Below are positions 31,811 through 35,680 of a stretch of 64,000 nt of DNA, piece after piece. Each line of letters begins with the position of its first letter. Within the stretch, counting starts at the first letter, position 1. Origin of the DNA: an uncultured delta proteobacterium (GTDB lineage Bacteria > Myxococcota_A > Polyangia > Polyangiales > Polyangiaceae); assembly GCA_963850305.1 (NCBI GenBank), contig CAWKKR010000008.1:832001-896000 (forward strand), in the 5' to 3' direction. Position numbers and translations under genes: made by a program. The notes under the pieces were generated by a model. It saw nothing but the letters and a program-made list of their open reading frames with translations. It was not told the DNA's origin and did no database searches.

Positions 31811-32193
31811 TTCAGATACGGGCCTACCATCATGCGGCCTGAATTTGGCAATGCAGATCTCGAAAATACGTGGAGATCACTCGGGTCTCTTGCTCGGCCT
31901 CGACCTACCACGCCGCGATCCGGGAGCAATCGCATCGCAAAGGCCCGTGCCGCGTGGCGTGGCCCGGAGAAACTCCGATGCCGTGCCGGAATTTCTCCGA
32001 CCGACTCGACGCGGGCAGCCTCGCAGAGCGGCTGCAGTGACGGCTTCACGCGCACCCCCATCAAGCACGTCGTCGTGATCGCGACCGCAGCGGCTCCCGC
32101 GGGCTCGGCTGCGGACGCCAATGCTCGCGACGGCGAGACGCTCGACGCCGGCGAATCGCGACGCGTGCAGGGCGGGCCTTGCCCCGCGGCTCC

Positions 32194-32786
32194 GCGACCG
32201 CTCCCCCGCCGCCTTCGGCGCGCTCGTGTTCGCAAGGGGGTCTTGACCCCCGCGGCTTGCTTCGCAACCGCTCCCCCGCCGCCTTCGGCGCGCTCGTGCT
32301 CGCAAGGGGGTCTTGACCCCCGCGGCTCGCTTCGCGACCGCTCCCCCGCCGCCTTCGGCGCGCTCGTGTTCGCAAGGGGGTCTTGACCCCCGCGGCTCGC
32401 TTCGCGACCGCTCCCCCGCCGCCTTCGGCGCGCTCGTGTTCGCAAGGGGGTCTTGACCCCCGCGGCTCGCTTCGCGACCGCTCCCCCGCCGCCTTCGGCG
32501 GGCTCGTGTTCGCAAGGGGGTCTTGACCCCCGCGGCTCGCTTCGCGACCGCTCCCCCGCCGCCTTCGGCGCGCTCGTGTTCGCAAGGGGGTCTTGACCCC
32601 CGCGGCTTGCTTCGCAACCGCTCCCCCGCCGCCTTCGGCGCGCTCGTGTTCGCAAGGGGGTCTTGACCCCCGCGGCTTGCTTCGCAACCGCTCCCCCGCC
32701 GCCTTCGGCGGGCTCGTGTTCGCAAGGGGGTCTTGACCCCCGCGGCTTGCTTCGCAACCGCTCCCCCGCCGCCTTCGGCGGGCTCG
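32194..32786. repeat. 70-bp REP-like tandem array (8 full units plus a partial)
   Basis: CTCCCCCGCC recurs at 32201, 32271 ... 32761. Each unit has hairpins CGCC-TTC-GGCG and GGGGGTC-TT-GACCCCC. Confidence 0.97.
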
Positions 32787-32863
32787 CTATGCTCGCGTAG
32801 TGCCGCGGCTCTTTGATCCCTCGGGGACGACGCTGCTCGTCGATGCGGAACTACTAGGAAGCT

Positions 32864-34097
32864 CTACGCCGCATGAGGTTTGATCTCCGACTTCGCAGCC
32901 GAGGTCGGTCAAGCGGCGGACGAGGCGTTTGATGGTCTTGCTCTGGTCGCGGCGGTCGAAGTGATGGGGTCCGAGGTCGCGGTAGGGAGTGCCGTCGCGG
33001 AGCATGTAGAAGGCGGCGGTGAGCATCGATGCGGCGACGGCCAAGATCGCCTTCTTTGCTCCACGGCGGGACTTGAGCCGGAGAAACTGGGCTCGAAGGT
33101 AGCTTTCCTTCGTGCGCACCGCGGCCCAGGCGGATGTGACGAGCGTCGTCTTGAGCCAGTTGGCGCTCTTGCGGACGCGCGTCGAGCGACGCTTGCCGGC
33201 GCTCTCGTCGTTGCGGGGGCAGAGGCCGGCCCAGGACACGAGGTGTCCCGCAGACGGGAAGCGCGACATGTCGACGCCGATCTCCGCCACGATCACGTTC
33301 GCGACGATGTCACTCACTCCCGGCATCGTCGTCAGGATCTCGGCGTGCGCCCGGATCGGCTCCAGCGCTTTTCCCGCAGCTGCATCGATCTCGGCCAGGG
33401 CCCCTTCGAGCGAGCCGATGACGCCGAGATGCAGCTTCAGCATGGCTCGGTGATGAGGGGTAACCCGCCCGCGCAGCGCTTCGATCAAGTCGGCCCTCTT
33501 CTTGCGCGCGGTACCGACCGCGAGATCGGCAAGGCGCTCGGGGTCATCTTCTCCGGCGATGAGAGCGGCGAGCATCGCCCGGCCGCTGGTCCCGAGCACG
33601 CTGGACAGGACGCTCGCGACCTTGATGTTCGAGTCCTCGAGCGTTTTCTGTATGCGCAGCGTGTGCTGGGCGATTTCTCGCACGAGCTGCGCGCGCGTTC
33701 GAGTGAGATCGCGCAGCTCCTGGATTCGCGCAGGAGGCACGAAACTGCTGCGGATCAGCCCGTGCGCGAGCAGATCGGCGATCCACGTCGCGTCGTTCAC
33801 GTCGGTCTTGCGCCCTGGCACGTTGCGAATGTGCTGGGCGTTCGCGAGCACGAGTTCGAAGCTCCCTTCGAGCATGTGCCAGACCGGCTTCCAGTACACG
33901 CCGGTGGCCTCCATCGCCACGTGGGTCACGCCGTGCTCCTCGAGCCATTCCGCCAGCTCGAAGAGGCTACGTGTGGTCGTGCCGAACGTTCGGACCTCGC
34001 GCCGCGTTGGTTCGCTGACGCAGCGCACGCAGGCAACGACGCTATCCTTGTGGACGTCGAGGCCCGCGCAACGGGGATACATGACTTCCATGACCAT
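32864..34097 (-). CDS. IS110 transposase (bridge recombinase)
   Basis: GLDVHK, AMEATG.YW, KTD..DA, MPGV and ESAGK; AGGAGG RBS. A +1 indel near 32889 hides the likely native end EIKPHAA* at 32864; as sequenced the ORF ends at 32787. Confidence 0.93.
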
Positions 34098-34109
34098 CTC
34101 CTCCTTTCG

Positions 34110-34263
34110 GCGCGTCGAGAGGAGCCCTCGTCATCGAAGTCTACTAGGCGTGCTCCCGGATCTTTCGACCCGCGGTCACAATTCGGGGTGCTCGCAGGGC
34201 TCCGGGTCCATCTACTGAACGGGTTCTTGGCACCAAGTCACGGCCGACCTCCTTCCCGACGCC
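34110..34263 (-). ncRNA. Putative IS110 bridge RNA
   Basis: Closing stem 34249-34262 paired with 34112-34124, GAAA hairpin, and a -10-like TATCCT at 34274-34269. Internal TCAGTAG (target match) and CCTAGTAG (donor match). Confidence 0.72.
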
Positions 34264-34451
34264 GCGGCAGGATACACTCGACTCCACCGTCCACGCGACG
34301 ACCCGAGCTTCATGCTTCGGGGAAGGCGCTCTCGCCGATGGGCATCTACTACTGACGCGGAACTGCTCCTCGCATCGGCGCGAGCGCGGGTGGCCTGAAT
34401 CTAAACCGGACCTTTACGAGCGTCCGGTCCGGATGCCATCGTTGGCGCGCT

Positions 34452-35358
34452 TTGTTCAAGAAGATCCTGCTCGGTATGGGCGCGCTGCTCTCGTTGCTCG
34501 TCGCGGGGGGCGGCGTATTCGTCTACGCCGAGACCTCGGCGTTCGATGCGAGCATGAGTCACGTCTACGACGTGCCGGTGCCGTCGATCTCCGCACTCGG
34601 TCGATCCCGCCGTGCTGGCCCGCGGCCAGCACCTGGTACGCGCCACCGCGGGTTGCGCGGACCACGACTGTCACGGTCCGGACCTCGGCGGCGGCCAGAG
34701 GCTCGACATGGGTCCCATCGGCACGCTCAGCGGGCCCAACATTTCGGAAGGAGGACTCGGCGCGGCCTACACCGACGGCGAGCTCGCGCGCCTCATCCGT
34801 CATGGCATCAAGAAAGACGGCACGTCGCTTCGCTTCATGCCCGCCGAGGAGTTCGACTGGCTACCGGACTCCGACATCCTGGCCGTCGTTTCGTACCTCC
34901 GCTCGGTGCCGCCGGCAGATCATCCCAACGGAACGATCCACCTCGGTGTTCTCGGAAAGGTGCTGGACCGTCTCGACAAGCTTCCGCTGGACGTCGCCCG
35001 GCGCATCGCGGCCGGGCCTCCCGAACTCGCGCCGCCTCCGACGCCCACCGCCGAGTACGGCAAGTTTCTCGCGCGCCTGTGCTCGGGCTGCCACGGCGAG
35101 GGCCTGAGCGGCGGGAAGATCCCGGGCGCGCCGTCGACCATGCCGATTCCGTTGAACCTCACTCCGGATCCGACGGGGCTCGCGGGCTGGACCTATCAGG
35201 ACTTCGATCGCCTACTCACCACCGGCATCCGGAAAAACGGCAAGCAGCTCAACCCATTCATGCCCATCGAGGCCTTCGGCAAGCTCGACGACATCGAGAA
35301 ACACGCCCTCTTCGCTTACCTCCAGACCCTCCCGCCACGGCGGTTCGGGGGCCGCTGA
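34452..35358 (+). CDS. Diheme c-type cytochrome, frameshifted near 34590
   Basis: N-terminal TM anchor in frame 34452. Frame 34612 carries CADHDCH, GPNIS, RHGIK, FMP, CSGCH, NLTP and PFMP. Confidence 0.8.
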
Positions 35359-35365
35359 GACGCGA

Positions 35366-35680
35366 ATGAAAGACCCTCGCGACGCCTCGCGACGCGAACT
35401 GCTCCGGTCGACGCTGCTCGGGCTCGGCACGATCGCGGGCCTCGCTGCTTGCAAGAAGCCTCGCGCCGTCGTGTGCGTGAACGGCGGGCTCACCCCGGCG
35501 GACCTCGCAGCGCGCCACAAGCTTGCATACACCGACACGTCGAGCGACCCGATCAAGACCTGCACCACGTGCCAGCAGTTCGTTCCACCAGCGTCGGACG
35601 ATCGATGCGGCCGTTGTAAGGTCCTGAAGGGCGAGATCCACCCGCTCGGGTATTGCAAAGGGTACACGCCGAGGGCGTGA
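35366..35680 (+). CDS. High-potential iron-sulfur protein (HiPIP), Tat lipoprotein
   Basis: SRRELL Tat motif, LAAC lipobox, Y..CTTCQQF..CGRC..IHPLGYC..Y. Confidence 0.85.
   Translation: MKDPRDASRRELLRSTLLGLGTIAGLAACKKPRAVVCVNGGLTPADLAARHKLAYTDTSSDPIKTCTTCQQFVPPASDDRCGRCKVLKGEIHPLGYCKGYTPRA

Follow-up and report, generated by a model that had tools for sequence, protein, structure and literature searches.

According to our analysis of the window (the whole stretch of 64,000 nucleotides of DNA considered here), its minus strand carries an IS110-family insertion sequence which very probably encodes a bridge recombinase with ends of the ISPpu9 type, accompanied by a family of hitchhiking MITEs. 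An IS110 bridge RNA that can be read off is routine in itself; the more unusual part of the finding is the companion MITE family, which had escaped the initial annotation of this DNA.

The IS110-family element and its recombinase

From core AG to core AG the element measures 1,497 bp (positions 32851 to 34347, minus strand, as for all features below), with limits set by the boundaries shared among its eight copies in the host genome, G000, which are 99.3 to 100% identical. Beyond these eight copies, tblastn and PF02371 searches of G000 found no IS110 genes. The gene at 32787 to 34097 was assigned to the DEDD/Ser recombinases on the basis of PF01548 and PF02371, of model NF033542 (282.9 bits, against a cut-off of 140) and of an alignment to IS621 (8wt6), whose E value of 1.2e-12 denotes distant proteins; the candidate catalytic residues are predicted to be D14, E63, D99, D102, and S299. 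Judged by its sequence, the element is a member of the IS110 family, since both a RuvC-like DEDD domain at the N terminus and a Ser domain at the C terminus are present; it is likewise multi-copy, has a short AG core, and is devoid of terminal inverted repeats and of a true target duplication.

The focal recombinase has 436 aa and those of the remaining seven copies 410 aa, because one extra G at 32891, private to the focal copy among the eight, replaces the last 7 residues with a tail of 33. This G is absent from the contigs of sequencing runs X3 and X4, and it may be either a private mutation or an assembly error. The dinucleotide at 33694 to 33695 divides the copies by contig, the four on contig C8 having GC and the rest AA, a split that may be due to local hopping, conversion, or a polishing artefact. 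A cytochrome c-like coding region appears to be divided over two overlapping frames (34452 to 35369 and 34612 to 35358), which suggests a frameshift.

Guides of the bridge RNA

For the analysis of covariation we assembled 159 foreign loci, added the 8 copies of G000 itself, and left out 7 own duplicates, 8 loci lacking a gene start and 3 lacking a guide anchor, so that 149 rows were retained, corresponding to 113 distinct RNAs. Left ends were called again without use of the guide in 124 of the 149 rows, and 117 agreed with the guided call. The titles of the records that supplied relatives at 64 to 85% protein identity name Polyangiaceae, Anaeromyxobacteraceae, Burkholderiales, Mesorhizobium, Vicinamibacterales, and further groups, and the clade extends over Myxococcota, Proteobacteria, and Acidobacteria records. 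Since the homologues are kin, any P values derived from them are overstated.

The initial annotation had proposed an IS110 bridge RNA, and the target and donor guides do covary with the DNA across the 113 homologous RNAs; by this measure the RNA is real, about 155 nt long (34110 to 34266, exact ends predicted), end-closed, and encoded upstream of the transposase. The strings CTACTGA, CTACTAGG, GAATT (34180 to 34184), and TATCCT (34269 to 34274), from which that proposal started, occur exactly where it had placed them: CTACTGA, as read on the plus strand, at 34212 to 34218, 44 to 50, and 34349 to 34355, and CTACTAGG at both 34141 to 34148 and 32851 to 32858. The chance of such matches in a shuffled 165-nt region is 0.6% for the 7-mer and 0.13% for the 8-mer.

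Covariation with the left flank and with the right end identifies TCAGTAG as the target guide and CCTAGTAG as the donor guide, as had been suggested. The left-target guide, UCAGU followed by core AG (34212 to 34218), lies on the 3' side of the target loop, and its nucleotides 34218 to 34214 equal left-flank positions -5 to -1 in 84/89, 79/89, 83/89, 85/90, and 88/91 elements, respectively. All five positions match in 72 of 89, whereas position -6 does so in only 5 of 85. The check on covariation among homologues recommended in the initial annotation turned up 31 distinct target guides, and 39 of the 49 guides other than TCAGT fit their own flank at all 5 positions, a natural covariation which suggests that the system is programmable. 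On the 3' side of the donor loop, the left-donor guide CUAGU (34147 to 34143) plus core AG (feature 34141 to 34148) corresponds to the element's right end in 88, 100, 100, 97, and 101 of 101 elements, position by position.

A short right-target guide, consisting of two nucleotides and the core complement CU, was located on the 5' side of the target loop (34236 to 34243; GACU at 34239 to 34236). The two nucleotides before CU are complementary to right-flank position +1 in 32 of 62 elements (16.9 expected) and to +2 in 23 of 62 (13.8 expected), after 24 of 86 elements without CU in register had been left out; when each distinct sequence was represented by a single element, 45.5/92 were obtained versus 23.7 ± 4.0. 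A scan of guide against right flank by alignment column gave no signal, which emerges only upon anchoring on the CU motif. We regard this guide as real but weak or loose, with about half of the +1 and +2 bases matching. The right consensus of the 22-locus L026 group is not clear. One contig of run X3 carries a substitution in the core-complement CU, at 34236, which may be an error at a depth of 2.8.

The two bases that follow the left-target guide (AU, 34210 to 34211) are identical to left-end bases +1 in 100 of 102 elements and +2 in 98 of 102. This identity covers all the rare A and C variants, while four Burkholderia-type elements mismatch at +2, and the dinucleotide fits the handshake pairing defined for IS621 in PMC11208158. 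After the donor guide stands an invariant A, and the facing right flank has A in 30 of 84 elements, a weak hint. No right-donor guide emerged as pairing covariation between the 5' side of the donor loop and left-end bases, a search of limited power because the first bases of the left end vary little.

Fold and promoter of the bridge RNA

The initial annotation had described a long closing stem and an RNA with closed ends. Both stand on comparative grounds, with 34263 to 34254 pairing with 34120 to 34111 and two-sided changes in 9 of the 10 pairs of this helix among 46 sequences, but the fold of the single sequence is no more stable than its shuffles (z = -0.06). An Rfam search returned nothing beyond a chance match below the gathering threshold. 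Over 46 RNAs, 92.6% of the cells of the named structure are paired (85.9% after shuffling; just 34 to 46% in slid controls), with 147 two-sided changes against 42.7 in shuffles. The donor-loop stem shows such changes in 5 of 10 pairs and its inner hairpin in 4 of 4, whereas in the target loop the closing stem does not vary and the inner hairpin shows compensation at a single pair (3/46), so that guide placement is firmer for the donor loop. In each loop the long guide occupies the 3' side, after an inner hairpin. For a possible pairing of GAAUU with the UUCG that follows the donor guide, 0 of 4 pairs are compensated. The near-invariant GGUGC (34234 to 34230) and GCACC (34191 to 34187) could form an alternative or pseudoknot helix, in which no compensation was seen by eye.

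The -10-like hexamer TATCCT (34269 to 34274), just after which the initial annotation had the RNA start, is a putative internal promoter, a probable assignment based on conservation of TAnnnT. The pattern recurs in 97 of 107 homologues (20.5 in shuffles), mostly at offsets -26/-25 (focal, -24) and about 25 nt before the loop; its position is thus conserved, but a full sigma-70 promoter was not found. Nor does the circle junction form a sigma-70 promoter, the best junction score being 5/12.

Target sites, core, and element ends

The initial annotation had pointed to the other genomic copies as a check, and all eight sit at TCAGT-AG on the left; the right CTTCCTAGT-AG is likewise common to them. 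TCAGTAG directly abuts the junction in seven copies. In the focal copy (left junction, 34346 to 34355) it stands 3 nt away because of an extra TAG (34348 to 34346), so the statement that TCAGTAG occurs at both insertion sites of the window holds with this offset; one similar slip was seen, in homologue L100. The second site (1 to 50) is the left end of another copy, located at the TAG stop of the open reading frame 1027 to 44. The T that precedes AG varies among homologues and tracks the guide in 88 of 91, so the core is AG and not TAG, and the (T)AG core favoured initially has to be given up. The apparent AGTAG duplication is a likeness between the target guide and the donor guide.

Two conserved boxes delimit the element. 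The left-end box (34305 to 34345), conserved in homologues, ends in the sub-terminal inverted repeat arm GAAGCTC (34311 to 34305), 35 to 41 nt after the core, and the right-end box (32851 to 32864) consists of the arm GAGCTTC, 5 nt, and core AG. The two arms covary in 89 of 94 elements, the variable base being C/G in 72 and T/A in 17.

On both strands of G000 (6.26 Mb), TCAGTAG occurs only 68 times, among which are 6 intact guides and 18 junctions. The left flank ends an open frame of at least 100 codons in 5 of the 8 IS copies and in 17 of the 42 free MITEs; a "safe harbour" strategy of targeting stop codons was nevertheless rejected, since unoccupied TCAGTAG sites do the same (24/45). Landing on stop codons follows from the rarity of TAG, with no added selection, and a TCAGTAG guide reaches them by default.

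Several arrangements in the homologues touch on the same junctions. Head-to-tail copies, with right end joined to left end at AG, account for 7 of 123 right junctions (L058, L066, L067, L075, L084, L115, and L152), and L061 and L065 appear to be inserted at a donor-like site within the left end of another copy. The Burkholderia-type elements L046, L047, L049, and L153 always occupy one conserved site, with left CCAACTCTTGAG and right AATGGAG, which we take to resemble an IS3-family end, and CCAUU, their 5' guide, agrees with five bases of the right flank once the register is shifted. The left end of L124 is preceded by the 5' half of its own bridge RNA, ending at the target guide; its right flank does not continue the RNA, and a second self-targeting event or an internal duplication is possible. 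No empty sites were found in congeners, where the flanks are too diverged or absent, and four DNA runs of one study contain neither a circle nor an empty-site joint, which weighs neither way.

The probable companion MITE family and its origin

Downstream of the focal element lies a companion repeat (32174 to 32850) made of a head resembling the IS left end and nine palindromic units of about 70 nt, with an eroded distal end; such a repeat adjoins 7 of the 8 IS copies. BLAST detected 112 repeat regions in G000, with 75 recognisable heads: 54 free, 8 in tandem, 7 behind the IS, 2 inside a guide, and 4 without a core. Among free canonical heads, 29 of 49 are preceded by TCAGT with at most one mismatch, against a background of 0.5%; the AG beside them is not evidence, because the assignment of heads itself required an AG at a distance of up to 3 nt. 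Array ends that fit the right-end pattern number 24; so few intact-looking ends for 75 heads speak against the hitchhiking account. A hidden Markov model built from 86 foreign left ends and run on G000 (E values up to 10) retrieved the 8 IS ends, 7 repeat heads, and 1 other match. Being non-coding, homologous to the IS at both ends, and precisely inserted at the IS target, the repeats would qualify as MITEs.

An identical 130-bp repeat sits exactly at the target-guide AG of 2 of the 8 copies (G000 C8:718132-719811 and C5:149076-150756), and the other 6 have the empty allele. The two identical insertions may represent one event that was later copied. In view of this insertion and of the sole IS110 genes of G000, we infer that the MITE is mobilised in trans by the recombinase. 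Much of the spread may nonetheless stem from a related, now absent element, because the repeat starts with TT, which fits the consensus handshake of the clade better than the AU of the focal RNA. The right flanks of 21 MITEs in G000 are A-rich at +1 (11/21), whereas the focal RNA predicts T. Heads in congener G152 begin AT..CCATC, as does the focal IS, and the IS homologue L152 begins with TTCCGCATC, as does the repeat. Much of the repeat's spread probably predates the present IS variant. With the query used, no close transposase was found in the 5 repeat-bearing congeners, whose assemblies are fragmented.

How the IS-MITE pairs arise admits a second answer that we deem possible if somewhat doubtful, namely, that the repeats do belong to this IS clade as its MITEs, with the pairs formed by re-insertion of the IS at the left junctions of resident MITEs, followed by gene conversion, and not by joint movement. 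The seven adjacent arrays differ in distal length while the IS copies are more than 99.3% identical, only 2 of the 7 keep a right end with an AG core, and the IS-MITE junction fits both target guides, all of which would be expected from re-insertion. The sequences of the arrays themselves point the other way: adjacent heads differ at 5.0 of 72 nt versus 16.8 for random free heads (0 of 5,000 draws as low), of the 28 occurrences of one unit variant 23 are IS-adjacent, as are all 3 of one head variant. This account is compatible with the hitchhiking MITE family that we favour, and the sole difference is the way in which pairs form.

It is unlikely, instead, that the repeats are ordinary host REP/REPIN sequences spread by a Y1 (RAYT) transposase and merely targeted by the IS, as happens with IS621, ISPpu10, and ISPa11. 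Their heads are indeed GTAG-tagged palindromes in BIME-like arrays, the repeats occur within the genus alone (in 5 of 6 congeners and in none of the 34 other relatives that were searched), 7 of 8 IS copies abut one, the MITE left junction TCAGT-AG-TT fits the right guide GA with one wobble, and Y1 genes exist in 3 of 5 congeners. Against this, PF01797 has no match in G000 (94.8% complete), the repeat is absent near 11 congener loci (10 Y1 and 1 distant IS110), homology links the heads with IS left ends and the tails with the IS right end, and one repeat is inserted precisely at the AG core of a guide. No cognate Y1 transposase flanked by repeats was found in these assemblies, which are incomplete. 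Genome G020 has 13 PF01797 (Y1) matches, many of them frames of about 235 aa, and the loci fetched from it carry no repeat.

Least probable by far is the guide map of the initial annotation, with guides in the IS621 order, a TAG core, and GAAUU guiding AGTTC, because, although GAAUU (34180 to 34184) can pair with AGTTC through one wobble and AGTTC does follow 7 of 8 copies, GAAUU lies within the strongly covarying donor-loop stem, does not covary with right flanks, and makes a wobble match of a kind that arises somewhere in the RNA for 19 of the 64 possible AGnnn halves, while the T before AG changes with the guide. GAAUU, on the 5' side of the donor loop, thus has no detected guide role: it matches the right target in 13/89, 23/89, and 27/89 elements, compared with 13.3, 17.8, and 28.3 after permutation, and shows no match to the left end beyond base composition. 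AGTTC, for its part, is not a genomic right target half but the start of the companion repeat's head. What survives of the proposed IS621 arrangement is the target loop preceding the donor loop; within the loops, the guides are not in IS621 order.

Proposed mechanism and significance

We propose that an internal promoter would drive an RNA, closed at its ends, in which the target loop and the donor loop each carry, as covariation shows, a long guide on the 3' side in the same sense as the coding strand. UCAGU-AG would select the left target half and CUAGU-AG the right end of the element, whereas, on statistical grounds, the right target half is read loosely by the guide of 2 nt which, together with CU, lies 5' in the target loop. 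Viewed on the opposite strand, the core would be CT and the layout would become that of IS621, with a short 5' guide and a 3' guide with handshake bases; with respect to the gene, the site would thus be held in flipped orientation. Recognition of the left end probably relies on the conserved box and inverted repeat, and by analogy with ISPpu9 and IS621 the element would circularise and recombine at AG. A left-end-like box and a ...TTCCTAGT-AG end could then suffice to make any DNA a substrate, which would allow a non-coding REP-like module to be moved in trans, whether by itself, in tandem, or following the IS. With a target of only about 7 nt, the guide-encoding DNA itself would be a target, and has been struck.

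More tentatively, and as a proposal that we rate somewhat short of even, a genus-wide GTAG-tagged REP/BIME-like family might have arisen and been maintained as bridge-recombinase cargo, not through RAYT, which would constitute a second origin of REP-like DNA; under the same proposal, a widespread IS110 clade would keep its DNA in flipped orientation, would act mostly through a single long guide in each loop, and would be throttled whenever its own MITE enters the target-guide DNA.

What gives the finding its value, as far as sequence comparison goes, is a putatively complete guide map for a widespread clade, with a layout reversed relative to the editing models; because of this reversal, anyone taking over the design rules of IS621 would alter the wrong bases. 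For ISPpu9-type elements the map is likely to hold as well. The MITEs represent a natural two-ended cargo of about 130 to 700 bp at dozens of sites, whose spread suggests that some REP-like families are IS110 cargo, beyond being mere IS110 targets, and the insertion into guide DNA reveals a self-targeting liability of short-guide bridge systems.

Comparison with known systems

On sequence criteria, the element is an IS110 with a bridge RNA whose layout is not of the IS621 type and whose gene organisation is not of the IS1111 type. It shares with the IS1111-type seekRNAs (ISEc11, ISKpn4, and ISPa11) a top-strand match located 5' of the bottom-strand match and sub-terminal inverted repeats, but their RNA lies downstream of a transposase of about 340 aa, whereas here it lies upstream of a 410-aa protein (PMC11187229). 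ISEc21, an upstream-RNA example in the same report, has an order opposite to that of IS1111 seekRNAs, and the focal guide order is in turn opposite to that of ISEc21. With REP/REPIN-RAYT systems the companion repeats have in common GTAG-tagged, GC-rich palindromes, intergenic clusters, and restriction to a taxon; they differ in that no Y1 transposase was found in G000 and that GTAG, in the present case, marks the junction of target and core at an IS110 end (PMC3733652).

The resemblance to IS621 concerns the DEDD and Ser recombinase, an RNA in the left end with a target loop followed by a donor loop, a dinucleotide core, and handshake bases beside the 3' guide (PMC11208160, PMC11208158). In IS621, however, the RNA runs in the order stem, LTG, stem-loop, RTG (PMC11208158), so that the left guide is 5' and the right guide 3', with a coding-strand CT core, whereas the focal element reverses this order and has an AG core; moreover, IS621 has guides for both donor halves, together with a promoter at the junction and a 5' stem-loop, while here a right-donor guide was not detected and the RNA ends pair (PMC11208160, PMC11208158). 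Fig. 6d and Extended Data 10c of PMC11208160 may depict a similar RNA.

Tandem non-coding repeat units beside IS110 have already been reported (bioRxiv 10.64898/2026.08.14.744561), as has recombination with one-sided guides or half matches (bioRxiv 10.64898/2026.08.14.744561, 10.64898/2026.08.31.748434). The word MITE is absent from the main text of the former, and in the available text of these two preprints on expanded IS110 we found neither dispersed repeats with two IS ends nor insertions into guides. A literature search, with subscription texts, figures, and bioRxiv supplements outside its scope, retrieved no instance of an "AG core" together with a bridge RNA, of the focal guide layout with an upstream RNA, of a genus-wide REP-like IS110 MITE family, or of a guide insertion.

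By analogy, the element would work most like ISPpu9 with MITEPpu9, both from Pseudomonas putida (PMC12288879), a likeness in ends, core, and module; in the consulted text on ISPpu9 its guides are not mapped. The two systems share an AG core and an upstream non-coding end, a left box of about 41 nt and a short right box (A and B' in ISPpu9) with inverted-repeat arms 5 nt and about 35 nt from the core (PMC12288879 Table S2), and a native promoter with no junction promoter (PMC12288879). Both are accompanied by a non-autonomous module that has the same ends and occurs by itself as well as next to most IS copies, on their downstream side; MITEPpu9 has 8 copies, encodes the ssr9 sRNA, and is inserted into REPs, whereas the focal family comprises 75 heads, forms REP-like arrays itself, and is genus-wide (PMC12288879).
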